The notes under the pieces are model-generated. The model was not told the DNA's origin. It was given only the letters and a program-made list of their open reading frames with translations, and did not search any database. Positions 1 to 24,831 of a DNA stretch of 28,045 nt are shown piece by piece (position 1 is the first letter of the stretch; each line of letters starts with the position of its first letter). The position numbers and the translations under genes were made by a program. Source of the stretch: a virus (taxonomy: Duplodnaviria; Heunggongvirae; Uroviricota; Caudoviricetes); IMG/VR virus record IMGVR_UViG_3300042889_001305; one strand, given 5' to 3'.

Positions 1-13
1 TTTATATAAATAT

Positions 14-42
14 AAAAAAAGGGAGAAATCATCTCCCTTTTT
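14..42 (-). terminator. Rho-independent terminator closing the envelope operon (possibly bidirectional)
   Basis: A7 (14-20), GGGAGA (21-26), 5-nt loop, TCTCCC (32-37), T5 (38-42). On the minus strand the hairpin is followed by U7, just after the TAA of ORF 46..300. Confidence 0.9.
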
Positions 43-45
43 AAA

Positions 46-300
46 TTATCCCAATTCTTCTTCTTTTGGTTCTTCTTTTTTATTAAAGATTTTACCCACT
101 TCAGCGATACCAAAAGCACCTAATGTTATGTACATAAATGAATTGTAAATAAATTCATTTACAAGTAATTCTTTTCCTAAATACCCAGTTACCAAATCAG
201 TAACTGCAAATGCTGTCATTACAATAAATGATGCAAACCCTACGATTGTTTTCTCATTCAAATCATTTGAATCTTTGAAAATATCAGTAAATTTAGCCAT
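46..300 (-). CDS. Small two-TM membrane protein, holin-like size and topology
   Basis: 84 aa with two hydrophobic segments (TIVGFASFIVMTAFAV; FIYNSFMYITLGAFGIA) and a highly charged C-terminus (KKEEPKEEE). Holin function is not demonstrated. Confidence 0.6.
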   Translation of the reverse strand: MAKFTDIFKDSNDLNEKTIVGFASFIVMTAFAVTDLVTGYLGKELLVNEFIYNSFMYITLGAFGIAEVGKIFNKKEEPKEEELG

Positions 301-347
301 AGTCTTTTTTCCTTTTTTTTTAATTATGAAACTATGTAACCTTTATT

Positions 348-971
348 TTATCCTACTTGTTCGGCATCTTCATCTCTGATTTTGCCACATTTTAAACATT
401 CTTCTTCACCATCACCATCTAAATCTCCCCATACGTGCTCACATTGTCTATGTGCAAAGTACATATCGATTTTACCATCTCCATCAAAATCTATACCATC
501 CATTACACCATCGCCATCTTCATCCACTTCAATACCTGTTCTTGGTTGTGTAGTTGGTACTTGTTCAAACGTATCGTTTACCTTTTCTATTTTTGAGTTT
601 TCAATAGCGGTTTGAAACGCCTCTGGTATGATTGGTGTGTTGTTTGGCGGAGTTACCGGCATATCAGCAGTGTTACTCATTGCCGTACCATCTTCCTCAT
701 CCATTTTCTGAACCAACATTTTATCTTTATCAGTATCACTAAACCAATAGTCAATGATTTTACCATAAGAACCAATGAACGCTCCTAATAACAATAATAG
801 AAGTTCTTTCCATTCACCTTCTATTGCTGATTTATTTAATATAGCGAAGAACATTCCTCCTATAATAAACATAAATCCACCCAATACCAATGCGGTGATG
901 TACCATCTTCTGGCCATCATATTACTTAATAAATCTTTAAAACCACTTGGGGGTTGATTATTTTCTGACAT
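348..971 (-). CDS. Two-TM membrane protein with a C-terminal DxDxDG Ca-binding / Cys-His Zn-binding tail
   Basis: 207 aa. TM segments YITALVLGGFMFIIGGMFFAIL and LLLLLLGAFIGSYG. Three DxDGDG motifs (DEDGDG, DFDGDG, DLDGDG). C-terminal C-x-H-x-W...CxxC. Confidence 0.65.
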   Translation of the reverse strand: MSENNQPPSGFKDLLSNMMARRWYITALVLGGFMFIIGGMFFAILNKSAIEGEWKELLLLLLGAFIGSYGKIIDYWFSDTDKDKMLVQKMDEEDGTAMSNTADMPVTPPNNTPIIPEAFQTAIENSKIEKVNDTFEQVPTTQPRTGIEVDEDGDGVMDGIDFDGDGKIDMYFAHRQCEHVWGDLDGDGEEECLKCGKIRDEDAEQVG

Positions 972-994
972 TTTACTTATTCTCTTTTTTTAAG

Positions 995-1156
995 TTACGG
1001 CCTATGTGGCCATTTCCAACCTTTTTTTCTACTTCTTATTACTAAATAACTGCTACCTCCAATAAAAGATGTTAAAAACATCAATGGAGAATTAAATACA
1101 AACATAGCTATCGTACACAATACAATTACCACTATAAAACCCAATCCTTGTTCCAT
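995..1156 (-). CDS. Small membrane protein not in the supplied ORF track
   Basis: Translated by hand: MEQGLGFIVVIVLCTIAMFVFNSPLMFLTSFIGGSSYLVIRSRKKGWKWPHRP* (53 aa). It fills the gap between flanking genes and has a hydrophobic core with a basic tail. Confidence 0.7.
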   Translation of the reverse strand: MEQGLGFIVVIVLCTIAMFVFNSPLMFLTSFIGGSSYLVIRSRKKGWKWPHRP

Positions 1157-1165
1157 TTTAAATGG

Positions 1166-1474
1166 TTACCATTTAGGTGCCTCTTCTTTAAATTCATCAC
1201 CTTCTTTTTTCTTTGGTTTTGGTGCCGGTGCTGGTTTAGCACTACCATCTCCACCCTTATTGATGATTATAGTTTTAGTACCGCCTGATACTTGTTGAGG
1301 TGCTGCTTGATTGATGTTGATTACTGGTGCTGCTTGTTGTACCGGTGTTTCATCTTTTTCACCCGTAATAATTTTTGTTACATATGCTGCAATACCTAAT
1401 GATATTGTACTCACAACTGTAATTAGGATACCTTTAAAAGATTTTCCTGTTGATTCCTCTTGTTCTTCTGCCAT
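1166..1474 (-). CDS. Single-TM protein with a Pro/Gln/Lys-rich low-complexity tail
   Basis: 102 aa. TM ILITVVSTISLGIAAYV, then QQAAP repeats and PAPAPKPKKK. GGAG lies upstream of the ATG. Confidence 0.7.
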   Translation of the reverse strand: MAEEQEESTGKSFKGILITVVSTISLGIAAYVTKIITGEKDETPVQQAAPVININQAAPQQVSGGTKTIIINKGGDGSAKPAPAPKPKKKEGDEFKEEAPKW

Positions 1475-1489
1475 TGTTAATTCTCCTAT

Positions 1490-1861
1490 TTATAGTTTGT
1501 TAAAATCCGTTATTCCTAATTGTTTACCACTTGCATCGAATAATCCTATTCTATATCCAGATGATGGTAATGCGTTTGTGTATACTTTTAAAATATTATC
1601 ACCTACCTTTACTTCACTTGTAGATTTAGATACTACTCTATTAGCAATATCAAAAATTTTAATAGTTACAGTTTGTGCTACATCACTTTTTACATTCATA
1701 GCAACTTCCGATGTTACAAATGGTGTTTGTAATTTGATACCAACCGCATTAGCTATTTTTAAATCATCAGTAGCCTGAGGTCTTATTGGTTCTATAATAT
1801 CATCTTTATAACAACCTGTTAATAGTACTGATAATGCAATTATTGAAATTAATTTTTTCAT
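1490..1861 (-). CDS. Lipoprotein whose mature part resembles a T9SS type-A C-terminal (Ig-like) domain
   Basis: Signal peptide II with lipobox LTGC followed by YKDD. Pattern VTIKIFDIANRVV...G.NIL...LPSSGYRIGL resembles Por-secretion CTDs, but there is no YPNP. Confidence 0.6.
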   Translation of the reverse strand: MKKLISIIALSVLLTGCYKDDIIEPIRPQATDDLKIANAVGIKLQTPFVTSEVAMNVKSDVAQTVTIKIFDIANRVVSKSTSEVKVGDNILKVYTNALPSSGYRIGLFDASGKQLGITDFNKL

Positions 1862-1872
1862 GTGGGTTTCCC

Positions 1873-2214
1873 TTATTTGGTTATTATTGTTGTTTTACTT
1901 ATTTCTTTTTTAGTAACATCTTCTAATAACAAATATAAATATTGAGATTGTATTGAATTCGTATAAATCTTCTTTACATTTTCTCCATTCTGTCCAATAA
2001 ACCTTTCTCTACTAACTACTTGTCCACTTTCTTTATCAATTAAAGTTAGTGTATATGTTCCAGCTGATGGTAAATCAAAATAAATAGATTGTCCGTTTAC
2101 TACTTTACTTTCACCGACACTAAATATTTTTTCAACAGTTGGAGTTGGGGTTGGTAGTTCTGGTTTAGTACACCCTACCAATAAAATCAATGATATCAAT
2201 ATTATCTTTTTCAT
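1873..2214 (-). CDS. Lipoprotein, paralog of 1490..1861, T9SS-CTD-like Ig fold
   Basis: Lipobox LVGC, Pro-rich linker PELPTPTPT, and YTLTLIDKESGQVV...G.N..KIYTNSIQS, which aligns with KVYTNALPS of the neighbour. TAATG overlap with the upstream gene. Confidence 0.55.
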   Translation of the reverse strand: MKKIILISLILLVGCTKPELPTPTPTVEKIFSVGESKVVNGQSIYFDLPSAGTYTLTLIDKESGQVVSRERFIGQNGENVKKIYTNSIQSQYLYLLLEDVTKKEISKTTIITK

Positions 2215-3107
2215 TAGAATTGAAAGTTTGTTCCTATCATAAATAGGATTGGGTTACTCTTTTTATATCCAACTGATTCACTTAATTTATCCCAAGTTGT
2301 GTTATATCTAATATTAGTATTCAATATGAATTTTTTAGTTATTTTCCAATCAATAGATGTACCATAATATAAATCCAAATTGAAATCATCAACATATGCT
2401 AAATCCGATTCAGTACCATCTTTGAATACTTTATATACATCACTCATTGCGAATATTTGTGGGGAGATGTTTACTCTTTTTGTTTTCAATGTATATGTGT
2501 ACATCACCATACCCCTATAACTCAATTCATTTGATGCCGGCATTTGTGGATATATTAAATCTTTAAAATTACCATTCTCATCAATTGTATATTTTCCTTC
2601 CCACTCGCCTTCGTATGTTCCCCAAAATGATTTTGATGCAATTACACTATATCCAAATGTTCCCCATTTTTTAGTTCTGAATACATCGATGAATGATAAT
2701 GTAATATCTTTTTGGAAATCAAAATCCGTAGAATAGAATGTTTGTATTGTAGTAGTTCTTTTTTCAGTATTTTTACTTAAACCATATCCCACACCATAAT
2801 AGTTCCATATAGGGTTTATCGATGCTGCAAATGAATGTCCCCATTGCCCATTCATAGATGATTTATGATATCCTAAATTAAGAGTAGTAGATACTTGCTT
2901 TCCGATTACACCTACCGAAAGGTTTGATGATGAAAGTACATCTTTTGAAAAATTAACATAGGATTGTAATATACCCACATCGTTCCAATCATCACTTTCT
3001 CCAAATAATTCTTTTGGTGATAGTTGTAATGTATCAGGTGTTTGTATTTGTGCGTTTGTAACAAAACTTACACAAAGTAAAAATAATATGGTTATTAGTT
3101 TTTTCAT
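2214..3107 (-). CDS. Outer-membrane beta-barrel protein
   Basis: Signal peptide MKKLITILFLLCVSFVTNA|Q. Many amphipathic aromatic-rich strands (WNYYGVGYGL, LYYGTSIDWK). C-terminal beta-signal-like FMIGTNFQF ending in Phe. Confidence 0.7.
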   Translation of the reverse strand: MKKLITILFLLCVSFVTNAQIQTPDTLQLSPKELFGESDDWNDVGILQSYVNFSKDVLSSSNLSVGVIGKQVSTTLNLGYHKSSMNGQWGHSFAASINPIWNYYGVGYGLSKNTEKRTTTIQTFYSTDFDFQKDITLSFIDVFRTKKWGTFGYSVIASKSFWGTYEGEWEGKYTIDENGNFKDLIYPQMPASNELSYRGMVMYTYTLKTKRVNISPQIFAMSDVYKVFKDGTESDLAYVDDFNLDLYYGTSIDWKITKKFILNTNIRYNTTWDKLSESVGYKKSNPILFMIGTNFQF

Positions 3108-3454
3108 CAGTCCATTATGAAAGTGTCGGTTTCAAATTCATATCTAAACGCTCCATCACCCACAAATGATACCCACCCAACTAAAATATTTTTATTTCTA
3201 TCATAAGTTGGTCCAATCCAAATCCCACCCTTACGAGTGAAATTATTATCTTGGTCTATAATAATAGTAGTTACATCTAGTACCCTCTGATGTAATTCCT
3301 TTAGCCATGCATCTGTAACAACAGGATAATCGTTTCTCATTTCTCGTATTACATCGTGAACTATTTCTTTCCAATCTCTTTGTTCGATTGGTAAAGTTTT
3401 AATATATTCTGGCCAATTAGCAACTCCAATTACCTTAAATGGTGTATCTAACAT
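3107..3454 (-). CDS. Hypothetical protein without an export signal
   Basis: 115 aa ORF. Its TGA overlaps the ATG of the beta-barrel gene (TGATG). No recognisable motif. Confidence 0.6.
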   Translation of the reverse strand: MLDTPFKVIGVANWPEYIKTLPIEQRDWKEIVHDVIREMRNDYPVVTDAWLKELHQRVLDVTTIIIDQDNNFTRKGGIWIGPTYDRNKNILVGWVSFVGDGAFRYEFETDTFIMD

Positions 3455-3459
3455 AATTT

Positions 3460-5742
3460 TTAATTTATTTTTATTTTTAATTGTGTTCCATTCTTATTAA
3501 CTGCATCAGTATTTGATATTGATGTTAATCCCAATGTACCATTTAATCCTATTAATGGTGTGAATGTTATTTTATATTCAGTTGTTTTATCTAATATAGT
3601 TGAACCATCTGTTATTAATGAACCCAATGTTACATATGTACCTCTATTAGTTCCAAAATTGGTAGGTGTCCCCTTTGTGGTGAATTCTATCTTTTCAAAC
3701 TTTAAAGCGGTATTATCATAGTTTAAATTGAATTGAGTACCGACTAATTCTTGTTGTAATGGGTCAACTGATATTGTTACTACTAACTTACCGCCAATAT
3801 TTTCACCCATCAGATATGCGTTTATTTGATTAGAAACTGAATTAGTTGCTAAACTCATACTTCGTATCGAATTGGTTGTAACACTACTTACACTTTGTTG
3901 TGCCGAATGTGAAAGATTCACATCACCTAACCAAGTTACATTTATATTGTATGTATTATTTAAACTACTCAATGTGAATGGAATTAAGTTGCGAGTTGAA
4001 TTAAATTGAGTTCCCCAATTTGATGTTGTTATTACATCGTAATCTGATTTGTTATATAATTTCATCAAATAAGTTAATGCCGTAGATTGTGAAAGTGATT
4101 GAACTCCTGTTAAATGTTGTAATAATTTATATGTATCCGATTCGTTAAATATCCCATTACCATCCACATCTGCATTTAAATACTGAATACCATTTGTTAA
4201 TCCTAATCCACTTTGGTTTCCCAATATACCTTTATCTGCCAATTCTTTAAATGCCAAATATACATCAGATACCCCTACTATATTACTATATAATGTATTT
4301 AGTTCCGTTTGGCTTGAATGAGTTAATTCCATTCCATGTGATTTGTATACCATTGCAGGTGAAAATGCAAATTCGGCTTTCGTTCCATACCAACCATCTT
4401 GTAATCTTAATTGGGCTTGAAATGTTGATGATGTTATTTTTGATGTCAAATCACCTGGCATTATATATGTTTTCCAAAAACCACTTACACTACTAATGGT
4501 AACTGGTCCATCGTATATATCAAATAATTTAATTGATGTTACATTGTTTGGAGAAACGCCCGTTCCATCAAATTCTCTTTCGTCTATTAACAATTGATGT
4601 CCACCCAAAGTTGCATTATATGGATTTATTATTGCCCATTCAGTTTGTCCAGCAGATGTTAGTGCTCTAATTCCATTTGCAGTTTTAGTAGTATCTAACA
4701 AACTTGTCAAATCAACTTTACCCAACCCACTTAATTGTTTAGCAGTTCCGTTTACTACATTCCATGTATTGTTAGTATATGTATATCCTTTTGCTGTGAA
4801 TTTAGTTTCATCTACATTACCACCAAAATCAACATTGAATTTTGCAGATAGAACTTCACCATTTGAGTGTGATACACTATTGGTATAAAACTCCGTAAAG
4901 GTTGCATCATCAGGATTAGTCCAAGTTCCATATTCAATTACATAAGGATTATTAAAATGATTAGGTAAATCGTTCCATTGAGAACCGCCACCCCATTTAG
5001 TTACTGCATAATCTTCATTACCACTATCGTTTGGTTCACCAGATGCCCAGTTGTTGTATTGACCGGGAATATTTCCGTTTAGTTGTCCGTTATTTATTTT
5101 AATTAGAGTTCCTTTTTCAGGTCCCGCATCTATCGTCCATCTAGCTTCACTTGCTTCATCGGTTAATGCAAACCAAATATTACCTTGTGGTACATTATTG
5201 AAAATAAATGCATCTTCATCGGCAGAAGTAATTGTTACCAAATATCCCGTTTGTCCTTTGAATGTGGTTAATAGAGATGCCGCTCTTGCGTTCGTATAAG
5301 TTGCTCCGGTTGTTATTGGTCTGTAAAAGTGTCCGTTTACACCATTGTAATAATATCCAACCGGATTGACTGTTGCCGCTACTGATAATAAAACATTACC
5401 TCTTACTGAACCTGTGTTTACTTTTAAGGATGCTAATGCAGTATTGATATTGGCCATTGTTCCCGTTACCACTAAACGAGTCTTATTACCTGCTAATGTA
5501 AATCCACTTGCTGCGGTCAGACCTGTTGTTGTAGTTAGGTTAAATGTTGTACCTGTTGGTGGATTAACTAAACTGATTGATGCTAACAAAGTTGATGTAG
5601 CACTAAACCCACTCAATACAAATCCACTTGCATCTTGTCCGGCAGTGGATGGTATAAACGATTTAGAGTCCGGAGCAGATACACTCTGTCCGAACCCTAA
5701 AAATGATATTAATAAGAATAATGTAACTAATAAATGTTTCAT
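3460..5742 (-). CDS. Secreted modular protein: adhesin-like N-domain, C-type lectin, unknown domain, dockerin-like motif, C-terminal cohesin-like domain
   Basis: The likely start is ATG at 5742 (MKHLLVTLFLLISFLGFGQ); the track's 5751 start is a TTG. Lectin motifs NGHFY...GYLVTITS..E...WASGEPN...EDY...WND. Dockerin-like ADVDGNGIFNESDTYKLLQHLTG. Cohesin-like GTQFNLNYDNTALKF. Confidence 0.75.
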   Translation of the reverse strand: MKHLLVTLFLLISFLGFGQSVSAPDSKSFIPSTAGQDASGFVLSGFSATSTLLASISLVNPPTGTTFNLTTTTGLTAASGFTLAGNKTRLVVTGTMANINTALASLKVNTGSVRGNVLLSVAATVNPVGYYYNGVNGHFYRPITTGATYTNARAASLLTTFKGQTGYLVTITSADEDAFIFNNVPQGNIWFALTDEASEARWTIDAGPEKGTLIKINNGQLNGNIPGQYNNWASGEPNDSGNEDYAVTKWGGGSQWNDLPNHFNNPYVIEYGTWTNPDDATFTEFYTNSVSHSNGEVLSAKFNVDFGGNVDETKFTAKGYTYTNNTWNVVNGTAKQLSGLGKVDLTSLLDTTKTANGIRALTSAGQTEWAIINPYNATLGGHQLLIDEREFDGTGVSPNNVTSIKLFDIYDGPVTISSVSGFWKTYIMPGDLTSKITSSTFQAQLRLQDGWYGTKAEFAFSPAMVYKSHGMELTHSSQTELNTLYSNIVGVSDVYLAFKELADKGILGNQSGLGLTNGIQYLNADVDGNGIFNESDTYKLLQHLTGVQSLSQSTALTYLMKLYNKSDYDVITTSNWGTQFNSTRNLIPFTLSSLNNTYNINVTWLGDVNLSHSAQQSVSSVTTNSIRSMSLATNSVSNQINAYLMGENIGGKLVVTISVDPLQQELVGTQFNLNYDNTALKFEKIEFTTKGTPTNFGTNRGTYVTLGSLITDGSTILDKTTEYKITFTPLIGLNGTLGLTSISNTDAVNKNGTQLKIKIN

Positions 5743-5743
5743 A

Positions 5744-7405
5744 TTATTCAACTATTAAGTTGATTTTATTACCTTTAGCATCTACTGCATCCGATAATAC
5801 AAAGTAGAATAATCCTGCAGTATTACTTAAAGTTTCTTTTGGTGTGAATATTAATTTATATGGAGTACCCACTTTAATTCTTGCAGTTTTTAATTGGTCA
5901 ATAGAACCAAATGTTAATCTACCATTATCATGTGTTGAGAAGTTAGTAATTGTACTTCCTGCATCGAATATTACGTTATCCAAAGTTAATTTAGATTCAT
6001 CATAATTCATTACTACTTGTAAACCTGCTAATTCTGCTTTTGTTAAAGTTGTAGTTAATACCACTTTTCCACCTTCTAATGTAGATGTAATACCTAATTT
6101 TGCTGTTTCTACCGCTAAAGTTTGATAAGCCATTGGTGCAGTACTCATAGATTTAATTGAGTTTGTACTTTTATTATTTACTGAATTAGTAAATTGTCCT
6201 GCAGTTATTTTAGATGCAATTACTGCTGGGTCTGATGAATGTGACCAGTTTAAATCACCACCCCATGCGAATACTGCATACACTTCTTTTATAGGAGTAT
6301 CAATGGTTACTTTATTCTTAACAACACCATCTAACCAACTTTGATTTAATAATCCACTATACCATTTTATTGAAGTTGAAGTTGAAGTTGGAATCATCGC
6401 AGTTGTTGACATATTCTGTCCCATCACATGTGCAAATAAAGCGTAAGAATCTGCTTCACCAAACGCAGTTTGAGTATTAGTTACTTTACCAACTTTCTTT
6501 TCTAATGCAGGTAATGTAAAATAATTTGTAGTTCCACTAATATCAGTTTGTGAATGTCCTAAAAATGCTTTGTAGGCATCTGATACAGTTACGATATTAT
6601 TCATCCACGTCTTTTGAAAGGCACCTCCAACAAATACACCTACTGAATCGCCCACTTTAACTTGTGTTGTGAAAAGAGCTTCACCACTTGCATCTAATGG
6701 TAATTGTGCAATAGGTTGTTGTGACCAATCAATATCTCCACTACCATCTGTTTTTAATTTCATCAATTGAACACTATGGTCAGTAATAGTATATCCTTGT
6801 GGATATAAAACTTTTACTTTAAATTGAGATGTATTACCTGTTACACCTGTTATAGATGAGAATCCACCACCAGTAATAGTTCCAACGTTTCCACCGGCAG
6901 TATCAGTACCAGTTGCCAAATCTATTTTGAATATGTTTGAATAAGTATTTTGGTCTTTTAAAATATATTTTTGAGTAGCTATTAATCCACTAATAGATTG
7001 GTCTGCTCTTTGAACTGTTAATTGTCCTACATTCCAATCTGCATTTACTGCATATCCCCACGGGGTTAATCCATACTGAAGATTTATATCATTATCATTT
7101 GCTCCTGCATTTGGAGTAAACTTATAGTTAGTCCAACCGGTATAAAATGTTTGTGCAGATGTACCTTGATTAAATGCAGTTGAAACATATGTTAATGCTT
7201 TATTGTTAAATTGGTATCTAAACCAAAGATAACGAGGATTAACAATGGTCTGTCCTTTTGTTAAAGTGTACTTAACTGTCAGAGTATCGCCAACTTTTAA
7301 CCCCGTTTCTGGTGTCATTGATTGACCGATTTTTAATTGTGCATTAGACGTAAATGCGATAGTGGATAGTATTAATATCCCTAAAAATGTTAATAGTTTT
7401 TTCAT
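5744..7405 (-). CDS. Secreted protein with N- and C-terminal cohesin-like domains and a degenerate dockerin-like region; paralog of 3460..5742
   Basis: Signal peptide ending TSNA|Q. N-domain LKVGDTLTVKY...FRYQFNNKALTYVS. Shared motifs VSDAYKAF / VSDVYLAF and WGGDLNWSHS / WLGDVNLSHS. C-domain AGLQVVMNYDESKL...DAVDAKG. Confidence 0.65.
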   Translation of the reverse strand: MKKLLTFLGILILSTIAFTSNAQLKIGQSMTPETGLKVGDTLTVKYTLTKGQTIVNPRYLWFRYQFNNKALTYVSTAFNQGTSAQTFYTGWTNYKFTPNAGANDNDINLQYGLTPWGYAVNADWNVGQLTVQRADQSISGLIATQKYILKDQNTYSNIFKIDLATGTDTAGGNVGTITGGGFSSITGVTGNTSQFKVKVLYPQGYTITDHSVQLMKLKTDGSGDIDWSQQPIAQLPLDASGEALFTTQVKVGDSVGVFVGGAFQKTWMNNIVTVSDAYKAFLGHSQTDISGTTNYFTLPALEKKVGKVTNTQTAFGEADSYALFAHVMGQNMSTTAMIPTSTSTSIKWYSGLLNQSWLDGVVKNKVTIDTPIKEVYAVFAWGGDLNWSHSSDPAVIASKITAGQFTNSVNNKSTNSIKSMSTAPMAYQTLAVETAKLGITSTLEGGKVVLTTTLTKAELAGLQVVMNYDESKLTLDNVIFDAGSTITNFSTHDNGRLTFGSIDQLKTARIKVGTPYKLIFTPKETLSNTAGLFYFVLSDAVDAKGNKINLIVE

Positions 7406-8067
7406 TGTTGTTGTTTCTCAATTTGTTTTACTAATGATTCACATGCTTTTTTAATAGCATTACTTAAACTCTGTTGATTGAATTTACCACCCTCATCAAC
7501 TATTAGTGTAGACATTGAGACTTCAGATGAACCCGCTTCTACTACAATATCTTTTCCTTTTTTGCCTTCTTTGAAAAGATTTGCTTTTAAGCGAACGACA
7601 ACTTCATCTTCATTTTTATGAAATACTGAAATGTTTGTTTTAGTTGATAGGACATCTAAATAAACGATTTCAACTTTTAATCTATATTTGGCATCTTCGG
7701 ATAATCCATATCCCTTTTCTTGTAAAAACTCTTCTAAGATATTTTTTACACCAAAAGCAAGATTACGATTTCCTGCTAACTTACCAATTTTAACCTGATT
7801 TTCTACGGATTCAACAAAGATATGGTCTTCGGCATCATACCATATATTTTCTGGATTATTTTTAAATGTACCATCGATTCTCCATTCAATCCAATTTACA
7901 ATGTTTCTTTGTAGTTCATGTTTACCAGATAACTCTAAATAAACAAAGAACATTTGGAAAGATATGGCGAATATAATCCATAACCCTACTAACGAAAGAA
8001 AAGCTGTGAATGCTTTTTCTTTTAACGAATCTACATTAATGTGTAAACTTTTAATTACCTGTTTCAT
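7402..8067 (-). CDS. Membrane-anchored protein with a putative CsgG/HfaB/LptE-like alpha/beta domain
   Basis: N-terminal TM (AFLSLVGLWIIFAISFQMFFVYL). The C-terminal domain has a strand-helix-3 strands-helix layout (LAFGVKNILEEFLQEKGY...LKVEIVY...VVVRLKA...LSNAIKKACESLV). The fold call is by pattern only. ATGA overlap with the next gene. Confidence 0.45.
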   Translation of the reverse strand: MKQVIKSLHINVDSLKEKAFTAFLSLVGLWIIFAISFQMFFVYLELSGKHELQRNIVNWIEWRIDGTFKNNPENIWYDAEDHIFVESVENQVKIGKLAGNRNLAFGVKNILEEFLQEKGYGLSEDAKYRLKVEIVYLDVLSTKTNISVFHKNEDEVVVRLKANLFKEGKKGKDIVVEAGSSEVSMSTLIVDEGGKFNQQSLSNAIKKACESLVKQIEKQQQ

Positions 8068-8150
8068 ATAATACCTTTTTTTAATTGAAAACTAAAACTA
8101 AAAAAAATAACCTATTTATGAAACATGTTGTTGCTAATAAGTATTATTCA

Positions 8151-8180
8151 AAAACAAAAAACCTCATTGTTAAATGAGGT
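8151..8180 (-). terminator. Rho-independent terminator between the glycosylation island and the envelope operon
   Basis: Perfect 8-bp stem ACCTCATT (8161-8168) / AATGAGGT (8173-8180) with a 4-nt loop containing the stop codon of 8170..9063, followed on the minus strand by TTTTTGTTTT. Confidence 0.85.
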
Positions 8181-9063
8181 CTTGTAATTCTTGATTAAAA
8201 TTTTCTTCTGATATCTTTTTAAATTCATCTCGTTTATCAAAAGCACTAAGATGATTTAATAAATGAGAATTGTTTCGGTATTTATAATTTTCACAAATTA
8301 CTAAATTTTTTATTTTAAATTGATAGATTTCCATATCAGTAGTTGTCATCAGTTTTTCTGCAGCCCACATTATAAATGTATCTTCAAATCCATAATGACT
8401 AAATGTTTCAGGTATACCAATTCTTCGTAATAATTGACCGGATAAACAAGTAAACCAACCTCCATTAAATTTATATCTTGGTTGATTTTCTATTACATTA
8501 TTAACCAATTCTAATGTAACCTCCCCTTTAACTCCGCAATCTATATATGGATTATTTGTAAGATGATAATTTAATGGTTTAGTTAAATACTTTTCATTAA
8601 CTAAACAATCCCAAGTGGAATCACCAACTCTAACAATCTCTGGTGTTATAATAGTATATGGATATATATCATTAATTGCTATTAGGGTTTCTTCCATATA
8701 AGATAAAGTCTTTTCATCAAATACGATATCAGTATCTAACCAAATATAATAATCTGCAGTTTCTTGAGTTTCTAATGTATGTTTTCTATGAGATACACAT
8801 CCTTTTATATCTTCAGATGCGGTGAAGTATTTTGCACACCAATCACTATGTGCTGATAGTTTTAGTAGTTTATCAATAAAATAACTTTTTGGTAACGCAG
8901 AACGTTTCCAATCTACCATATCATTTGCTATACACATACTCACATCTAACACCCATTCATGTGTTCCACTTAGGTGTTTTGATGCACGTCTTAATTGAGT
9001 TAATAGAGTTTCTAAATCATCAATTTCATGTGGTAAAGTAAATATTGATATTACTATCCTCAT
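8170..9063 (-). CDS. GT-A fold glycosyltransferase-like protein (paralog 1)
   Basis: YYIWLDTDIVFD (DxD), KFNGGWF, HYGFEDT (similar to the GT2/GT7 G-x-E-D motif). 297 aa. Confidence 0.7.
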   Translation of the reverse strand: MRIVISIFTLPHEIDDLETLLTQLRRASKHLSGTHEWVLDVSMCIANDMVDWKRSALPKSYFIDKLLKLSAHSDWCAKYFTASEDIKGCVSHRKHTLETQETADYYIWLDTDIVFDEKTLSYMEETLIAINDIYPYTIITPEIVRVGDSTWDCLVNEKYLTKPLNYHLTNNPYIDCGVKGEVTLELVNNVIENQPRYKFNGGWFTCLSGQLLRRIGIPETFSHYGFEDTFIMWAAEKLMTTTDMEIYQFKIKNLVICENYKYRNNSHLLNHLSAFDKRDEFKKISEENFNQELQDLI

Positions 9064-9953
9064 TTGTTATTTAATATATTTTGTAAACCGATATAAAATA
9101 ATTCTTCGTTATACTTTTTATACTCCTCACGTTTATCTATAAATTGTATTTGGTCTTTATAAGTGGTAATTCTATCGTAATAATTTTCACACACAACTGT
9201 ATTTTTTAATTTGAATTGTTTTATGGTAGGGTCTTGTAATATATTTGCACCCCACATTAAGTAAGTATCATCCAACCCATAGTGTCCGTAGTTTTCTGGA
9301 AATGGTATAACCTTCATTAATTCTTTTGATATCAATGCGAACCACCCACCACCAAATTTCATATATGGTTGGTGATGAACATTATTATGTACCTCCTCTA
9401 AGTGTGGGTCTCCATAAATAGTGGCATCAATATGTGGATTATTAGTTGCCTGATATCCTATTGGTTTATTTATAAATCTTTCATTTACTAAACAATCCCA
9501 TGTAGAATCCCATTGTCTTACGATTTCTGGGATAGATACAAATTTAGTAAATCCTGCATATTCAATTACATCTATTGAATTGATTGAATGTGCTAGGGTT
9601 TGTGGGTCAAAGATTATATCAGTATCTAACCACAAATAATAGTTTGAATCAGAATACGATGCTAATCTTCGCATTGAGGTACATCCGTTTATAGTAGTTG
9701 TAGTTTCAAATATTACCTTTCCTGCCCAATCCGTTAATGGTTTCAATCCTAAAAACTTTTCTGTGCATTCTTCTTTGGTAACACCACTTTTACCCCAATC
9801 AATTATCTCATCAGATACACACATAACAACATTAAATTTAATATTATCACATTGTTCTTTTGTTAGATAATCTTTTCCAATATGTAATCGATTTAATGAT
9901 TTTTCTAAATCTTCAATGTCCGTTGGTGATATCCAAATTACAATTTCTATCAT
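9060..9953 (-). CDS. GT-A fold glycosyltransferase-like protein (paralog 2)
   Basis: Start reassigned to ATG 9953 (ATGA overlap), giving 297 aa. YYLWLDTDIIFD, KFGGGWF, HYGLDDT. Confidence 0.7.
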   Translation of the reverse strand: MIEIVIWISPTDIEDLEKSLNRLHIGKDYLTKEQCDNIKFNVVMCVSDEIIDWGKSGVTKEECTEKFLGLKPLTDWAGKVIFETTTTINGCTSMRRLASYSDSNYYLWLDTDIIFDPQTLAHSINSIDVIEYAGFTKFVSIPEIVRQWDSTWDCLVNERFINKPIGYQATNNPHIDATIYGDPHLEEVHNNVHHQPYMKFGGGWFALISKELMKVIPFPENYGHYGLDDTYLMWGANILQDPTIKQFKLKNTVVCENYYDRITTYKDQIQFIDKREEYKKYNEELFYIGLQNILNNK

Positions 9954-10441
9954 ACTAATTCTGCAACTTTTGCCATTCGACCAAATACACATAATGTATT
10001 TTGTCCAACCAATGGTAAGTTATCAGTTAACATAACCAATTGGTCTTTATCTATTATATATTTGTATTCATCTTTTATCTGAACAGATTCACCTTTACTC
10101 TTTTTATTTTTAATATAATTGATAAAGGTATTGGGGTTACTTCCCCATGTGATATTGCCAATTCTAATAATATTATAATTTTTAAAATTAGATTTGATAA
10201 GGGTTTCCATTCTTAGTTTGTGTTGTAAGTATTTGTTACTCCCTACCTTTTCAATATCATCAACTGAAATGGAACTAAAATAGAATAAACACTTTGTTTT
10301 ATCTTGTGTATCTAACAATTCTATTTCACGCATAAATTCAGATTCTCTTGTTTCATTACTATTAGAAACACCAGATACAAAGAATGTTGCCCCTTCTCTA
10401 TCATTTAAGACAGATGCTATATCCCCCCTACCTATAATCAT
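9950..10441 (-). CDS. Short NAD-dependent epimerase/dehydratase-like (SDR) protein
   Basis: Start reassigned to ATG 10441 (TAATG overlap): MIIGRGDIA, FFVSGVSNS, YFSSISV, YLQHK (YxxxK). 163 aa. Confidence 0.65.
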   Translation of the reverse strand: MIIGRGDIASVLNDREGATFFVSGVSNSNETRESEFMREIELLDTQDKTKCLFYFSSISVDDIEKVGSNKYLQHKLRMETLIKSNFKNYNIIRIGNITWGSNPNTFINYIKNKKSKGESVQIKDEYKYIIDKDQLVMLTDNLPLVGQNTLCVFGRMAKVAELV

Positions 10442-11304
10442 TATTCGTATTTTTTTGTTATGATTCGATTCCATTCTGGAATTCTATCGTATTGATGTAC
10501 CATTGCAAATGGAATACCTGTACTTGTTTTTACAATATCACCATCCATAATAGGTGATGGTTCTAATAGGTTATCACCATACTGACTAACCATTCGTTGG
10601 TCAACCGTCGTTCCACATTGTGCAGCCCAACCCTCTTCGGAATTTGTAAACTTAGTCAATTCTTTATATGGTGAAAATGATAATGCTACATTTACTGCTG
10701 CTTGGTCAGGTGTTGCCGATGGACTTCCTTGACACATTAAATACACATTTAAAAATAATTCAGACATTGTTTTCCAATCACCTGATATTGTTCCTGCGTT
10801 TACTGTTATATTTTCTTTACATCTATCATAAACCACTTCACCAAAACTTTCAATCATATTACCTCTACCCCATACCTCATCCTTATACTTAACACTTTCT
10901 CTACCTGCATTAATTTTATAATCACCTAAGTTTTTTTCTAACCACTCTGATGGGTTATATTGGAACACAACATCTTTTGGGTCTAATGCTAATACATATC
11001 TTAAACCTTCAGATGTTTCTTCTGCCAATTGATTTAGAGCAAGATAATAATGTAAATGTCTATCAACTGTTACTATAAAATTATCTCTATAAGTGTATCG
11101 TTGATTTACTTCATCTCTATTGAATCCAATAACATCCCATCCTCTTTTTTTCAATTCATCGACCGTTGAAAATGGAACATTATAAACTATCATAACTTTA
11201 TGACCAGTGAATCCACTTCTATCAATTGAGTTTACAAATAGTTTAATATTTTCAAATGTATAATTTGTGATACATCCTATTACTACATCTTTCATTTTTT
11301 TCAT
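10441..11304 (-). CDS. GT-A fold glycosyltransferase-like protein
   Basis: YVLALDPKDVVFQYNP motif, VNAGTISG, DQAAVN and C-terminal VHQYDR, all typical GT-A landmarks. Confidence 0.6.
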   Translation of the reverse strand: MKKMKDVVIGCITNYTFENIKLFVNSIDRSGFTGHKVMIVYNVPFSTVDELKKRGWDVIGFNRDEVNQRYTYRDNFIVTVDRHLHYYLALNQLAEETSEGLRYVLALDPKDVVFQYNPSEWLEKNLGDYKINAGRESVKYKDEVWGRGNMIESFGEVVYDRCKENITVNAGTISGDWKTMSELFLNVYLMCQGSPSATPDQAAVNVALSFSPYKELTKFTNSEEGWAAQCGTTVDQRMVSQYGDNLLEPSPIMDGDIVKTSTGIPFAMVHQYDRIPEWNRIITKKYE

Positions 11305-11305
11305 A

Positions 11306-11938
11306 TTATCCTAATTTGTGTAAATCTTTATATCCGTGATAAATTGCATGGTCTGTATTATCGTAGTATCCAGGTTCAGCCAATTCAATCCACTTTTCGT
11401 TTGATACATCTGCATCTTTGAATATTCTTTCTTTCAAAGCATCTCCTGCCCAAGAGTAAATATGTTTTTGTCTTATTATTGTTTCCAATCCATGTTCTCC
11501 TAAGTTTTCATAAATTTTTAAAAAAGTTTCTCTTTTAAATATTGCTCCACCACCTGCTCTAAAATATTCTCTATTAGTTCCAACATCTTTTGAAGGCCAG
11601 TGTTTGATTTTTCTTTTTATTAGAACATCATCTTCCAATAACATCACCCATTCCGAATTTGATTTTTTACAAGTATTATATATTCTATAATGTGATTCTA
11701 ACATTTTTGGGATGTTCGTTTCCATCGAATCGGTTCTCTTTATATATCCCTGATTTCTTTGTCTAATTGTCATTTCTACATTGAATGAATCACATATTTT
11801 TTTATATTCATCTATTTTGGGTGAATTTGAATCTATATAAAAATCTATTAGTTCATTTGGATAAAACTTTCTAACATTAGATATACAATTCTCAAATGAA
11901 TGTAAATAATTTGAATCTTGAAAATTAAAACTTATCAT
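11306..11938 (-). CDS. GT-A fold glycosyltransferase-like protein (EDD motif)
   Basis: EWVMLLEDDVLI, GGGAIF and a C-terminal IYHGYK. Confidence 0.55.
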   Translation of the reverse strand: MISFNFQDSNYLHSFENCISNVRKFYPNELIDFYIDSNSPKIDEYKKICDSFNVEMTIRQRNQGYIKRTDSMETNIPKMLESHYRIYNTCKKSNSEWVMLLEDDVLIKRKIKHWPSKDVGTNREYFRAGGGAIFKRETFLKIYENLGEHGLETIIRQKHIYSWAGDALKERIFKDADVSNEKWIELAEPGYYDNTDHAIYHGYKDLHKLG

Positions 11939-12684
11939 GCAATTGATTTATATATGTATGGTGAAGGAAATCCTCTTTCAATAAAGTCTTTATCGTTTAA
12001 ATTTGTATATCTAAAATGACAAGACCAACGAATATCATCATTTAGTATATCACCTGAATTGTGGGCCAGTAATGTTGAAAATATTGCAATGTCACCAATT
12101 TGTAAAGATGGTTGAATTGGTTTATATATTTCGGTATCAATATTAACTTCTGCAAATCCAGATGTTCCCAATGATGTAGTAAGAGGGCCTAATTTATGAC
12201 TTTCTGGATAAAATACAACTGCTCCATTTTCAGGAGTAACATCAATTAATGGAATCCAAACAACAACCGAGTCCGATGATGATAACATTGATGGGTAATC
12301 TTGATGTGTTGGTGTTTTATAATATTGTGATTCTTTCGCTAATTTAGGATGATTAAAAAATAAAGCGGGTCTTGTACAAACCAATGGATTTGATATTCCC
12401 AACTCTTTTAACTTATCTAACAGAATATCATCATATACTATTTTGTATAATTCGACTAAACCAGATTGGATTAATTTACCAGTACTTTGAAATATTTCAA
12501 AATGTTCTTCAAATAATCTAATCATTGAATTTTTAAATCCATCTTCACTATCAAAATCGGTATAACCAAAATGTTTGAATTGAATTTTAAAAACATCTTT
12601 TGCAGATTCTCTTAATTTTTCAATTCTTTCTTTTGTAAAAAATTGTTTTAAAACAATTATACCATTATCTTTCAATTGTTGCAT
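11935..12684 (-). CDS. Phytanoyl-CoA dioxygenase (PhyH) family 2OG-Fe(II) oxygenase
   Basis: NGIIVLKQFF, TPTHQD (HxD), VWIPLIDVTPENG...PESHKLG, GDIAIFSTLLAHNSG (distal His), RWSCHFRY. Confidence 0.85.
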   Translation of the reverse strand: MQQLKDNGIIVLKQFFTKERIEKLRESAKDVFKIQFKHFGYTDFDSEDGFKNSMIRLFEEHFEIFQSTGKLIQSGLVELYKIVYDDILLDKLKELGISNPLVCTRPALFFNHPKLAKESQYYKTPTHQDYPSMLSSSDSVVVWIPLIDVTPENGAVVFYPESHKLGPLTTSLGTSGFAEVNIDTEIYKPIQPSLQIGDIAIFSTLLAHNSGDILNDDIRWSCHFRYTNLNDKDFIERGFPSPYIYKSIA

Positions 12685-13564
12685 ATCCTATACCAGTTTT
12701 ACCAAACCCATTTCCGTTATAAAACATATAGAGTTTGTTTTTATAATTTATAATATGTGGATATTCTACCATCTGATTATCCCAGTTACTATCGTTATCC
12801 ACATCAAGTCCTAATATACTAATTTTTTTCCAATTTACCAAATCAAAACTTTCTGCACATTTTATTCTGTAACTATTTGTTGGGTTTGTCCTATAATCGG
12901 TTTCCATTCTAACCGAATACCACATTAAATATTTATCATTATGTTTTATAACAGATGCCTTTGATATTCCACCTTCACCATCTTCCAATTTTATAGAAGT
13001 TCCTATCGGAAACCAATCTATTGCATTTTTTGATGTTGCATATTTTATATCGTATATGGGTTCAGGTTTGCCATCAAATACTTTCCATTCTCTACAAGCC
13101 AAATAATATCCATAAAACAATTTATCTTTTTTTATAATAGATATGGTGCCTGTATATCCTGGTTCTTTATATGATGTTCCGAATATTGGACCATCAGAAA
13201 ATTTATTCCAAGTAATTCCACCATTCGTACTTACTGCAAGTCCCAATGTATTGTGATATGGTACATCCAATCTGTTTGTCCAACCTATATAATACAAATA
13301 CTTCACATTACCGATTGTAATTATTTCAGTTGGCATTATACCAGCAACATCGAATTTGCCCAAATTACCCAATTCTAAAATAGGTCTTTCCGATTCAAAT
13401 AAAATATTCGATGGATTTCCAACTTCAACATCTATATAAAATGGATGACTTTTATTATCAATTCTTTTTGAATAATATATTCTCCAGTATCCGTTATTAT
13501 TTATATCAATTACCGGTACCTGTGAATGATGTTTATTAAAAATATTTCCTCCCCTTTCCCACAT
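12665..13564 (-). CDS. Five-bladed beta-propeller glycosidase-like protein (GH32/GH43/GH130-like)
   Basis: Start reassigned to ATG 13564. Repeated blades FDVAGIMP..II...YLYYIGW, AVSTNGGITWNK, AESFDLVNWKK, WDNQMVEYPHII...LYMFYNGN. Confidence 0.7.
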   Translation of the reverse strand: MWERGGNIFNKHHSQVPVIDINNNGYWRIYYSKRIDNKSHPFYIDVEVGNPSNILFESERPILELGNLGKFDVAGIMPTEIITIGNVKYLYYIGWTNRLDVPYHNTLGLAVSTNGGITWNKFSDGPIFGTSYKEPGYTGTISIIKKDKLFYGYYLACREWKVFDGKPEPIYDIKYATSKNAIDWFPIGTSIKLEDGEGGISKASVIKHNDKYLMWYSVRMETDYRTNPTNSYRIKCAESFDLVNWKKISILGLDVDNDSNWDNQMVEYPHIINYKNKLYMFYNGNGFGKTGIGYATIER

Positions 13565-13565
13565 A

Positions 13566-14225
13566 TTAATAAACTTTACTCGCCGGGGCTTCTTGTTTTT
13601 TTGCAGGTGCACCCATATACAACCCATCTTGTTCAGTTGATTTTGTTATAACCGCACCCATTGCTATCAAACTACCTTCACCAATTGTCAAACCATCTCT
13701 TATTGTTGAATTTACACCAAACCAAGCCCTTTCTTTAACATGACAATGTCCCGATAAAACTACATGTGATGTGAAAAATGCATGGTCTTCTATTTTACCA
13801 TGATGTCCAATGTGATTACCACTCCACATAACAATATTGTTTCCAATTTCAGTAAATGGTTGTATTGTATTATCTTCCAAAATAAAACAATTTTCACCTA
13901 TTTTATTTCCACATATTGTTGCCTTTGAAGAAATATAAGAAATATAAGTATATCCTTTTTTCTTACCTTCTTCATAAATTCTTTTTCTATTGTTATTCAT
14001 CTTTGTACCTGTCATAGGTGCAAAAAATAAATATTCAGTTGGTGGATATAGTTTTTCTAATTCTTCAAAAGGAACTACCGGTAATCCTTTAAATTCGGTA
14101 ATTGACATATATTCTGCATTTACTGTAAATGCAACTATTTCATAGTTACTATCATTTGTCAAATACCAATGAGTTAGTTCCGCAGTATCGTTTATACCAA
14201 AAACTACTACTTTATTTGTAAACAT
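13566..14225 (-). CDS. NeuD/PglD-family sugar acetyltransferase (hexapeptide repeat)
   Basis: KVVVFG N-domain, then left-handed beta-helix repeats IGENCFI, IGNNIVM, IGHHGKI, IGEGSLI, and GAPAK. Likely start ATG 14225. Confidence 0.85.
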   Translation of the reverse strand: MFTNKVVVFGINDTAELTHWYLTNDSNYEIVAFTVNAEYMSITEFKGLPVVPFEELEKLYPPTEYLFFAPMTGTKMNNNRKRIYEEGKKKGYTYISYISSKATICGNKIGENCFILEDNTIQPFTEIGNNIVMWSGNHIGHHGKIEDHAFFTSHVVLSGHCHVKERAWFGVNSTIRDGLTIGEGSLIAMGAVITKSTEQDGLYMGAPAKKQEAPASKVY

Positions 14226-14823
14226 ACGTTGTGTATTCATATAATCCATAATCATTTCTTATTATAAAATTTCTACTTAAATTATTTTTTAAAAACCAAC
14301 CCAACTCATCCAATGAAACATGAAATAAATCATCACGTTCCCAATCAACATGTTTTGACATTAAATTGAAAGCAATTCCTTTATCACACTTATTCCATAA
14401 TTTTTTAATTACACTTGTAAAAAAATCCATCATTTCTTCTTGTGATAAATCTCTTTTTTCGGTAAATGGGCCGTTACATACGATATAATCAAAATTTGGT
14501 ATACTTTCATTTTTTAAAATATCCAAACAATAAAAATCATTATTAGGAAATTTTAATTTCGAAGTATTATAAAATCCATCATTTATGTCTAATCCGGAAT
14601 ATTTTATATTTTTTATTTTCAAAAATTCAATATACTGATTTAACGATGCTGTTCCGCATCCAAAATCTAATAGTGATATTGATGTTTCTTCTTTTATTAA
14701 TCCAAGCATCACATCATACCTTTTAAAAGTATCTTCCAATTTTGGCCAATCCACTCCTAAATGAGTATCACCATGTTCTTTAAAACATTTATCGTAATGT
14801 TCTGCCAATTTTAAATAACTCAT
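14212..14823 (-). CDS. Class I SAM-dependent methyltransferase
   Basis: LLDFGCGTA, YSGLDIN, FDYIVCNGPF, GIAFNLMS. Confidence 0.85.
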   Translation of the reverse strand: MSYLKLAEHYDKCFKEHGDTHLGVDWPKLEDTFKRYDVMLGLIKEETSISLLDFGCGTASLNQYIEFLKIKNIKYSGLDINDGFYNTSKLKFPNNDFYCLDILKNESIPNFDYIVCNGPFTEKRDLSQEEMMDFFTSVIKKLWNKCDKGIAFNLMSKHVDWERDDLFHVSLDELGWFLKNNLSRNFIIRNDYGLYEYTTYVYK

Positions 14824-16171: not shown

Positions 16172-16184
16172 ATTATTATAATTT

Positions 16185-16925: not shown

Positions 16926-16936
16926 AACTTATATTT

Positions 16937-17581: not shown

Positions 17582-17599
17582 AATTGGGTTTTTTATTTA

Positions 17600-18595: not shown

Positions 18596-18598
18596 ATA

Positions 18599-19189: not shown

Positions 19190-19193
19190 ATTT

Positions 19194-21432: not shown

Positions 21433-21433
21433 T

Positions 21434-24764: not shown

Positions 24765-24800
24765 AACTCTCCTTTTTTTTGTTATGTATATAAATATATA

Positions 24801-24831
24801 CAAATATAAAAAAGATAAAATTTATGACCAA
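24801..24831 (-). promoter_or_regulatory. Bacteroidota-type sigma-A promoter for the RHH / glycosylation block
   Basis: Minus strand TTGG (24831-24828), 19-nt spacer, TATATTTG (24808-24801), a perfect TAnnTTTG -7 element. Confidence 0.75.

Follow-up and report, generated by a model that had tools for sequence, protein, structure and literature searches.

We analyzed a stretch of 28,045 nucleotides from the IMG/VR virus record IMGVR_UViG_3300042889_001305 (Caudoviricetes), referred to here as the window, and in it a block of eleven co-oriented genes on the minus strand. These genes, numbered g1 to g11 along transcription, are flanked by two strong hairpin terminators (Table 1). The original prediction had described this region as a terminator-bounded transcription unit devoted to proteins of the host envelope, and the description bears out. 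Both the open reading frames (ORFs) and the folding energies confirmed the eleven genes and the two terminators: none of 200 shuffles reached the folding energy of either hairpin, and no comparable hairpin was found in the interior of the block. The genes are tightly packed, with overlaps of 1-4 nt at the g1/g2, g4/g5 and g5/g6 junctions and gaps of at most 47 nt at the remaining ones. As had been predicted, ten of the eleven genes encode a signal peptide, a lipobox or a membrane helix in hydropathy and motif scans, g4 being the exception. The module is real, conserved and abundant; its parts have known folds, and phage proteins acting on the envelope are a known general kind.

The predicted phage context was also confirmed. 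The window encodes clamp-loader proteins of the gp44/gp62 type, GroES, a dUTPase and an exonuclease, and the related loci are viral contigs of up to 334 kb that carry T4-like replication genes. The source is a T4-like jumbo phage from a lake, with relatives of 200-330 kb, whose hosts are Flavobacterium-like freshwater Bacteroidota. Positions 1-8000 of the window had no match among GenBank phages at the DNA level. NCBIfam returned nothing over its cut-offs for the window proteins, and the PHROGs matches of the module proteins were signal-peptide-only matches to Cor-type lipoproteins.

Table 1. Genes and other features of the block; positions refer to the window (aa, amino acids; nt, nucleotides)
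Feature	Position	Strand	Description
Terminator upstream of g1	8158..8183	-	11-bp stem and T-run; -12.1 kcal/mol, z -3.65; closes the upstream glycan-gene transcription unit
Promoter-like motif ATACTTATT	8136..8144	-	69 nt upstream of the g1 start, between terminator and g1; weaker variant of (T)ATA[TC]TTATA
g1, 221 aa	7402..8067	-	Predicted uncleaved N-terminal membrane anchor (~19-45) and periplasmic YajG-like (PF03923) domain
g2, 553 aa	5744..7405	-	Signal peptide, two immunoglobulin (Ig)-like beta-sandwiches, helical dockerin-like segment (~266-400), C-terminal cohesin (~430-553)
g3, 760 aa	3460..5742	-	Signal peptide, N-terminal domain, C-type lectin (~136-275), variable middle (~300-475), dockerin-like loop DVDGNGIFNESD (528-539), C-terminal cohesin (~650-760)
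g4, 115 aa	3107..3454	-	No export signal; orphan
g5, 297 aa	2214..3107	-	Signal peptide; predicted outer-membrane beta-barrel, ~12-14 strands, terminal Phe; optional
g6, 113 aa	1873..2214	-	Lipoprotein, g7 paralog
g7, 123 aa	1490..1861	-	Lipoprotein; putative beta-sandwich, similar in sequence to DUF3244 and to the sorting domain of the type IX secretion system (T9SS); mature N-terminus C-Y-K-D-D
g8, 102 aa	1166..1474	-	Bitopic membrane protein; conserved AAPVINI and C-terminal KKKEGDEFKE..W motifs (42 relatives aligned)
g9, 53 aa	995..1156	-	Small hydrophobic protein, basic C-terminus; optional, in 11 loci
g10, 207 aa	348..971	-	Membrane protein; conserved juxtamembrane block, acidic DxDGDG stretch, conserved H-x2-C...C-x2-C motif
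g11, 84 aa	46..300	-	Two membrane helices, charged C-terminal tail (holin-like topology)
Operon-closing terminator	16..42	-	11-bp stem and T-run; -15.2 kcal/mol, z -4.08
Next motif copy ATATTTATA	5..13	-	After the closing terminator; starts the following unit, which runs off the window

Conserved gene order in related phages

Related loci were collected by a protein-guided scan of IMG/VR with g2, which returned 99 relatives, and the best 80 were kept as loci. Synteny was then mapped by tblastn with all window proteins against these loci. A search of IMG/VR for a conserved gene order had been proposed together with the original prediction, and such an order was found: g1-g2-g3-(g5)-g6-g7-g8-(g9)-g10-(g11 or an alternative 82-aa protein)-sp240 recurs in about 65-80 loci on uncultured phage contigs, and it persists even where the identity of g2 falls to 59%. 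The conserved core comprises g1, g2, g3, g6, g7, g8 and g10, whereas g5, g9 and g11 are optional. Downstream of the block, sp240, a conserved exported protein of 240 aa, is present in nearly every locus reaching that far, and it is often followed by a TonB-receptor-like barrel of about 800 aa. No relative of g4 was detected by tblastn in any of 85 related loci, nor among viral contigs, and no family match was obtained in Pfam, PHROGs or NCBIfam. We therefore regard g4 as an orphan insertion outside the conserved set.

The nearest relative, G001, is 98-100% identical to the window over g8-g11. Beyond the point at which the window ends, it carries five more genes, encoding a 239-aa protein, a lipase-like protein, sp240, a zinc-ribbon protein and a TonB-receptor-like barrel. 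The block in the window thus appears to be one segment of a larger envelope island that continues past the window edge. The idea of a complete, self-contained set is not supported: g4 is unique to the window, three genes are optional, sp240 and the barrel lie downstream, and in relatives an endolysin gene is inserted into the block or adjoins it. The lipase-like gene belongs to the class-3-like type, contains a GHSLG motif and lies at 3900-4643 of L003 (G001). The barrel of about 800 aa was located at 2-2380 of L003 (G001) and at 17067-19544 of L063; it has a signal peptide and a terminal Phe, and is TonB-dependent-receptor-like by its sequence features. We also considered sp240 as a paralog of g1, but profile-profile comparison gave only a 17-residue motif at 11% probability. 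Profiles of g1, g2, g7 and sp240 returned nothing significant from PDB sequences.

On the other side of the block, the DNA directly upstream (window 8170-22720, minus strand) carries a run of sugar-modification genes with Pfam or PHROG matches: GT25-like and other glycosyltransferases, a PhyH-type dioxygenase, a hexapeptide acetyltransferase, methyltransferases and a nucleotide-sugar epimerase. These genes are shared with only 4-9 of the roughly 80 related loci, indicating that the block keeps its order while its neighbours vary. The upstream run is a variable glycan island beside the conserved envelope block. In eight loci (L066, L067, L048, L046, L043, L073, L068 and L070) the DNA upstream of g1 finishes with what looks like the T-arm and acceptor of a tRNA (GGTTCGACTCC...CCA-type), after which comes a hairpin, so that the module adjoins a putative tRNA gene there.

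One relative, G002, is a complete genome of 288,673 bp (288.7 kb) with terminal repeats. In this genome 360 of the 369 called ORFs lie on one strand, and a second g10-like gene was seen at 69.9 kb, distant from the module. The phages that carry the block are abundant, as the family of g1 spans more than 4,588 metagenomic sequence clusters and that of the g3 tail more than 2,171. We found no published description of such a module in the literature on phage cohesin and dockerin proteins, on phage factors directed against the T9SS, or on the immuto phages; these genes go unmentioned in Chen et al. 2022 (PMC9723584). The view that the system is undescribed is in line with this outcome.

Export signals and domains of the encoded proteins

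The scans predicted cleavable signal peptides for g2, g3 and g5, each with Ala, Gly or Ser directly before the cleaved bond and Gln after it. Lipoboxes were recognized in g6 and g7 (L-V-G-C and L-T-G-C), one N-terminal membrane helix in g1 and membrane helices in g8-g11; none of these elements was present in g4. When the relatives were included, Gln was exposed at every predicted signal-peptidase-I site (65/65 for g2, 59/59 for g3 and 23/23 for g5). An N-terminal Gln after cleavage by signal peptidase I is known as the 'Q-rule' and has been described as specific to Bacteroidetes (PMC5837995). Since all predicted sites follow this rule, the host is taken to be a member of the Bacteroidota. Judging by their signals, nearly all of the products would be routed through the host's Sec pathway, signal peptidases I and II, lipoprotein sorting and barrel assembly.

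The hydrophobic helix of g1 comprises 26 residues, and the protein has neither a lipobox nor a small residue at position -1 before the conserved Gln. Against PF03923 (Lipoprotein_16) g1 of the window scored 24.4 bits, just below the cut-off of 25, and all 35 aligned relatives matched this family at E <= 0.1 (best E 3.7e-6). In contrast, the earlier designation of g1 as CsgG/LptE-like was not upheld. At E <= 0.1 neither g1 nor any of the 35 relatives matched CsgG (PF03783), no LptE family match was obtained for g1, and the two names were recovered only as low-score Atlas leads (0.85-0.86). 'CsgG/LptE-like' is at best a statement about the fold class. Five of the 35 relatives also matched TraT, a plasmid surface-exclusion lipoprotein, but these matches (best E 0.0068) are too weak to interpret.

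The two largest proteins, g2 and g3, had been predicted to be secreted cohesin/dockerin proteins. In the AlphaFold model of g2 (predicted local distance difference test, pLDDT, 80; predicted template modelling score, pTM, 0.70), residues ~430-553 matched type I and type II cohesin structures with a probability of 1.0 and template modelling (TM) scores of 0.55-0.69, normalised by the target. At the sequence level, the cohesin family PF00963 gave 20.5 bits for g3 (cut-off 24.1; E 5.7e-4) and no match for g2, and a precomputed match to it is present in several close relatives of g3. The C-terminal halves of g2 and g3 are related, with 28% identity. The cohesin part of the prediction therefore stands, by model in g2 and by a sub-threshold family match in g3. 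The dockerin part stands only as a dockerin-like segment, as the two repeats of a type I dockerin (PF00404) were not found: g3 has one canonical calcium loop (DVDGNGIFNESD), the loop is missing from the first repeat of g3 and from both repeats of g2, and there was no Pfam dockerin match. A regular-expression scan for dockerin-like motifs on the virion proteins of G002 was uninformative.

The best matches of g2 in the AlphaFold database were Bacteroidota proteins annotated as T9SS cargo, which show the same four-part Ig-Ig-dockerin-cohesin block followed by an extra C-terminal sorting domain. The best viral match was a protein of an uncultured phage, likewise annotated with a T9SS sorting domain. 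Neither g2 nor g3 matched this domain (PF18962 / TIGR04183), and both end at the cohesin.

The lectin domain of g3 gave a sub-threshold match to Lectin_C (PF00059; 20.8 bits, cut-off 22.6, E 6.8e-4). Many relatives of g3 carry a precomputed match to this family, and a profile of the relatives (n = 42) matched more than 30 solved C-type lectins with E values of 0.005-1. Residues E236-P237-N238, E243 and W256-N257-D258, which correspond to the EPN and WND motifs for sugar and calcium binding, are nearly invariant in the 42 relatives. In C-type lectins that have been studied, the EPN motif goes along with a specificity of the mannose/N-acetylglucosamine type. The domain is probably a calcium-type sugar-binding domain, in which sugar binding itself is inferred from these motifs. 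The most variable part of g3 is not the lectin domain but residues ~300-475. With these motifs, the barrel model of g5 and the lipoboxes of g6 and g7, the predicted lectin, outer-membrane barrel and two lipoproteins all hold.

The signal peptide of g5 ends in TNA before the Gln, and its C-terminus reads NFQF. Its model (pLDDT 68) matched the barrels of NanC, PcoB, FapF and autotransporters, as well as Bacteroidota DUF2490 barrels with TM scores of 0.56-0.63. With a signal peptide, a closed antiparallel barrel in the model and a C-terminal aromatic residue, g5 is predicted to be an outer-membrane barrel. We also considered the PorP/SprF barrel of the T9SS (PF11751), but no Pfam or NCBIfam match was obtained at E <= 1. 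The family is tiny: a profile search of 1.84 billion representatives recovered 29, none of them named or annotated. The gene was detected in 31 loci, where its identity never left the range of 80-93%, and is missing from about half of the relatives. The same range holds for phages in which the identity of g2 has dropped to 59-65%. The presence/absence pattern together with the high identity suggests either recent spread or strong constraint.

The two lipoproteins are paralogs, since g6 and g7 aligned in hhalign with 99.3% probability (E 2e-20); the lipobox of g6 is present in 54 of 65 relatives. Relatives of g7 matched two families below threshold, namely DUF3244 (40/41) and Por_Secre_tail (32/41 at E <= 0.1, best E 0.0031), while g7 of the window gave E 0.094 for PF18962 and E 0.014 for TIGR04183, both under the cut-off. 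The export signal of surface lipoproteins has been defined in Capnocytophaga as C-X-K-(D/E)2-X (PMC5080379). The mature N-terminus of g7 agrees with this consensus; among its relatives, 47/50 have Lys at +3, and in 31/50 the positions +4 to +6 include two acidic residues. The signal of g6 (C-T-K-P-E) fits only partly. A complex prediction of g7 and g6 with the periplasmic tail of g8 as partner scored 0.01 against a mark of 0.32, with the partner folded poorly, and so weighs neither for nor against a contact.

The remaining genes encode small membrane proteins. The periplasmic part of g8 is rich in Pro and Gln and contains short beta-type motifs, and its gene is preceded by a strong Shine-Dalgarno-like AGGAG (window 1475-1500), unlike most genes of the block. 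For g10, the Atlas look-alikes were viral hypothetical proteins only. In many relatives g11 is swapped for an unrelated protein of 82 aa, which likewise has two membrane helices. Searches of Pfam and PHROGs gave no holin family match for g11 and no spanin family match anywhere in the block.

A promoter-like motif shared with virion genes, and linkage to endolysin genes

A short motif between the upstream terminator and g1 bears on the timing of expression. Of 53 relatives, 40 have the pattern ATA[TC]TTAT[AT] in the 150 nt preceding g1, regardless of the gene lying upstream, compared to a background of 0.033 per 150 nt. The genome of G002 contains 89 copies; for 54 of them a co-oriented ORF starts no more than 130 nt downstream, mostly at a distance of 25-45 nt. 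The copies are concentrated at 69-191 kb, the region containing the capsid gene, and the genes sampled downstream of them, at 25-45 nt, encode a tail sheath, a head-tail adaptor and a virion structural protein. The motif is nearly absent from intergenic DNA among the replication genes of the window. We infer that it is a phage late-type promoter. As the motif upstream of g1 also precedes virion genes in G002, the block is probably expressed late, a conclusion drawn from this co-occurrence. For the same reason, exclusion of superinfecting phages early in infection is less likely than the original prediction had implied.

Among the replication-type genes of the window, only one further copy of the motif (24789-24797, minus strand) is possibly intergenic. 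It lies inside the listed TTG-start ORF of a small Arc-like repressor gene (24570-24803), 7-15 nt past the start, and would be upstream of this gene only if the true start lies further downstream.

The block is also linked to an endolysin gene in the relatives. The capsid gene of G002 is found at 141 kb and the module at 227-235 kb, with an endolysin gene, identified by its peptidoglycan-binding N-terminus and a GH19-like C-terminal motif, between g7 and g8. In about 20 of 80 loci, the 10 kb on either side of the module include an endolysin gene, and in at least 7 it is the immediately adjacent gene. Given the motif common to virion genes and this linkage, the block is tied physically, and probably temporally, to the end of infection.

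Known counterparts and possible roles at the host envelope

The closest cultured counterpart is a reduced, co-oriented block in the Flavobacterium phage vB_FspM_immuto (NC_055915), gp013-gp019. In protein searches of GenBank phages, g1 and g2 found no match and only the lectin domain of g3 led to the immuto phages. The immuto block encodes an exported C-type lectin (37% identical to g3 over the lectin domain), exported proteins that structurally match g2 (the BFVD entries have 363 and 243 aa, the lengths of gp014 and gp015), and gp016, a bitopic protein that aligns with g8 and shares its terminal Trp. Also encoded are gp019, which resembles g1 (29% identity, E 1e-9), an exported protein of the sp240 type and a protein resembling a barrel, with Phe as its last residue. 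However, the immuto block is smaller, has a different gene order, carries the lectin and the cohesin on separate proteins and lacks detected lipoproteins of the g6/g7 type. It stands among replication genes, and its g1-like protein begins with a cleavable signal peptide where g1 has a membrane anchor. The immuto genes are annotated only as 'lectin C-type domain-containing', 'cohesin domain-containing' or hypothetical proteins, and no functional study of gp013-gp019 was found in searchable papers.

Conserved clusters for exported envelope proteins are also known from other T4-like aquatic phages, and the closest parallel in the literature is among them. CsgG/CsgF ('partial curli', type VIII secretion) clusters have been described in pelagimyophages (PMC7029224), which provide that parallel, and in the Methylophilales phage Melnitz (PMC9004378). 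They lie in a variable stretch that separates the replication module from the structural one, and aggregation or altered uptake was proposed for them. These clusters hold clear CsgG and CsgF proteins, and lectin, cohesin, dockerin or sorting-like lipoproteins were not reported in them. Because it has no CsgG or CsgF match, the block in the window does not belong to this family of clusters.

Among cellular proteins, T9SS cargo of Bacteroidota (for example the A0A3M1X096 and A0A7Y5R635 clusters) shares the architecture of g2 over residues 22-553 (E 5e-15 to 8.5e-13), but at only 10-12% identity, and in the window the sorting-like domain is found on separate lipoproteins. The C-termini of g2 and g3 have the cohesin fold of cellulosomal and non-cellulosomal proteins such as those of Clostridium cellulolyticum and C. 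perfringens (PDB 2vn5, 1g1k, 2jh2), and the canonical calcium loop of g3 is a further likeness to cohesin-dockerin assemblies. Unlike in cellulosomes, a full two-repeat dockerin is lacking and both modules are on one polypeptide; the block has no scaffoldin, enzymes or cell-wall anchor, and its producer is a virus of a Gram-negative host. T5 Llp, Cor-type lipoproteins and TraT-like proteins are envelope factors for exclusion or receptor masking; like some predicted products of this block, they are lipoproteins or outer-membrane proteins, and they act at the host surface. Each of them works as one small protein on a defined receptor, whereas the module here consists of at least 8 proteins, and the likeness to the Cor PHROG and to TraT was not significant beyond the lipoprotein signal.

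With somewhat better than even confidence, we consider the block to be a late module for remodelling the envelope, whose lectin and cohesin proteins would bind envelope glycans at or after lysis, most plausibly masking receptors on the dying cell and its debris. In this model, the proteins of the block would be produced alongside the virion proteins. The lectin and cohesin proteins and the surface lipoproteins would fill the periplasm and the outer membrane of the doomed cell, g1 would be an inner-membrane-anchored periplasmic protein, and g8, g10 and the holin-like g11 would be small inner-membrane proteins acting in or alongside lysis. At or just after lysis, the loaded proteins would attach to envelope glycans or link them to one another. 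The receptors of the lysing cell and of its debris would then be masked, and progeny or competing phages would neither be wasted on the cell nor admitted to it.

Several points weigh against this proposal. The data are equally compatible with several roles, of which receptor masking is one. The window's own copy of the motif is the rarer ...TATT variant (6/54 in G002), and in G002 the motif is missing directly upstream of its truncated g1. The 28-kb window contains no endolysin gene, and the Pfam matches of its own proteins are all under the curated cut-offs. The canonical C-type lectin fold has conserved disulfide pairs, but g3 contains no cysteine, and its lectin domain is therefore a divergent member of the family. 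Finally, no recognizable route across the outer membrane is evident for g2 and g3, and these proteins may consequently stay in the periplasm until lysis.

The late timing and the endolysin linkage could also be explained by an expanded lysis cassette. Here, g11 or its 82-aa alternative and g9 would act as holin or antiholin, g8 with g6/g7 would form a spanin-like link from the inner to the outer membrane, and g1, g2, g3 and g5 would help to breach or disperse the Bacteroidota outer membrane and its glycan layer. The endolysin gene between g7 and g8 in G002 and next to the block in other relatives, the promoter-like motif common to virion genes, and the topologies of the small proteins (two membrane helices and a charged tail in both g11 and the 82-aa protein; bitopic g8 adjoining the lipoprotein genes) all argue for it. 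We nevertheless consider it unlikely. No holin, spanin or lysis family was matched in Pfam, PHROGs or NCBIfam, and the endolysin is absent from the window and from most related loci. I-spanins such as lambda Rz have a periplasmic coiled coil, and o-spanins such as Rz1 are short proline-rich lipoproteins. The periplasmic part of g8, with its Pro/Gln-rich composition and beta-type motifs, is not a coiled coil, and g6 and g7 contain conserved domains of about 100 aa. Moreover, a lysis cassette would leave the lectin and the cohesins without a role.

An assembled structure is conceivable in two forms. The exported lectin and cohesin proteins and the surface lipoproteins, made late, might come together outside the cytoplasm as an adhesive coat that acts on the lysing cell, its debris or its neighbours through contacts of the cohesin-dockerin type and calcium-dependent sugar binding, and the sorting-like lipoproteins might also disturb the T9SS of the host; we consider this decidedly unlikely. 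If it were true, the coat would be a viral counterpart of a cellulosome-style scaffold that steers the adsorption of progeny, by debris masking or by 'sibling capture'. The original prediction had proposed a self-contained machine for assembling a lectin-bearing structure on the surface of the infected host, for exclusion, masking or aggregation. In such a machine, g1 would be the channel or assembly factor and g5 the outer-membrane pore, and g2 and g3 would form a cohesin-dockerin scaffold on the living cell. The block does have predicted products for every envelope compartment, g2 and g3 could be chained through their cohesin and dockerin-like modules, a surface-export signal is present on g7, and 'sibling capture' by aggregation has been proposed for the CsgG/CsgF cluster of pelagimyophages (PMC7029224). 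Yet a conserved route across the outer membrane is not evident: g2 and g3 have no sorting domain, the barrel g5 is missing in about half of the relatives, and g1, with its inner-membrane anchor and no lipobox, gave only a borderline YajG-like match and none to CsgG. Neither an ATPase nor another energy source is encoded in the block, the set does not stand by itself, as further genes follow downstream in relatives, and since expression is probably late, little time would remain for such a structure to act on a living cell. A self-contained secretion or assembly machine is therefore improbable.

Interference with the host's T9SS would give the lipoproteins a more specific task. Tethered sorting-like domains of g6 and g7 would engage the host shuttle or translocon, either shutting down secretion and gliding adhesins or drawing the cohesin proteins to the system. 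In Flavobacterium, gliding and T9SS surface proteins serve as phage receptors. The sub-threshold matches to Por_Secre_tail and DUF3244 are consistent across 32-40 of 41 relatives of g7, and the proteins nearest to g2 in structure, cellular as well as viral, combine a T9SS tag with its Ig-Ig-dockerin-cohesin block. However, all matches fall short of the family cut-off, and the likeness could reflect no more than a shared beta-sandwich. We rate this explanation as highly unlikely. It is extremely improbable that the products are virion parts, such as fibres or decoration proteins, or that the DNA is bacterial with a known locus. Ig-like, lectin and cohesin-type domains do occur in phage fibres and decoration proteins, as seen in matches to viral proteins with fibronectin type III or Ig domains. 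The idea of virion parts was rejected on account of the cleavable Q-rule Sec signals, lipoboxes and membrane anchors conserved in the relatives: proteins whose signals direct them into host export routes cannot be virion parts assembled in the cytoplasm. In addition, the block lies outside the structural region in G002, and all relatives are viral contigs with T4-like replication genes.

As far as our searches showed, this is the first cohesin/dockerin-plus-lectin set found to be encoded by a virus. The finding places a conserved host-envelope block of about 8-12 kb in abundant phages, where lysis, receptor biology and export features peculiar to Bacteroidota (Q-rule, surface-lipoprotein signal, T9SS-like domains) meet. 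Its role can be put to the test, since a reduced version exists in a Flavobacterium phage in culture. Understanding the block would show how large phages manage the Bacteroidota surface at the end of infection, and could yield parts for display or adhesion.

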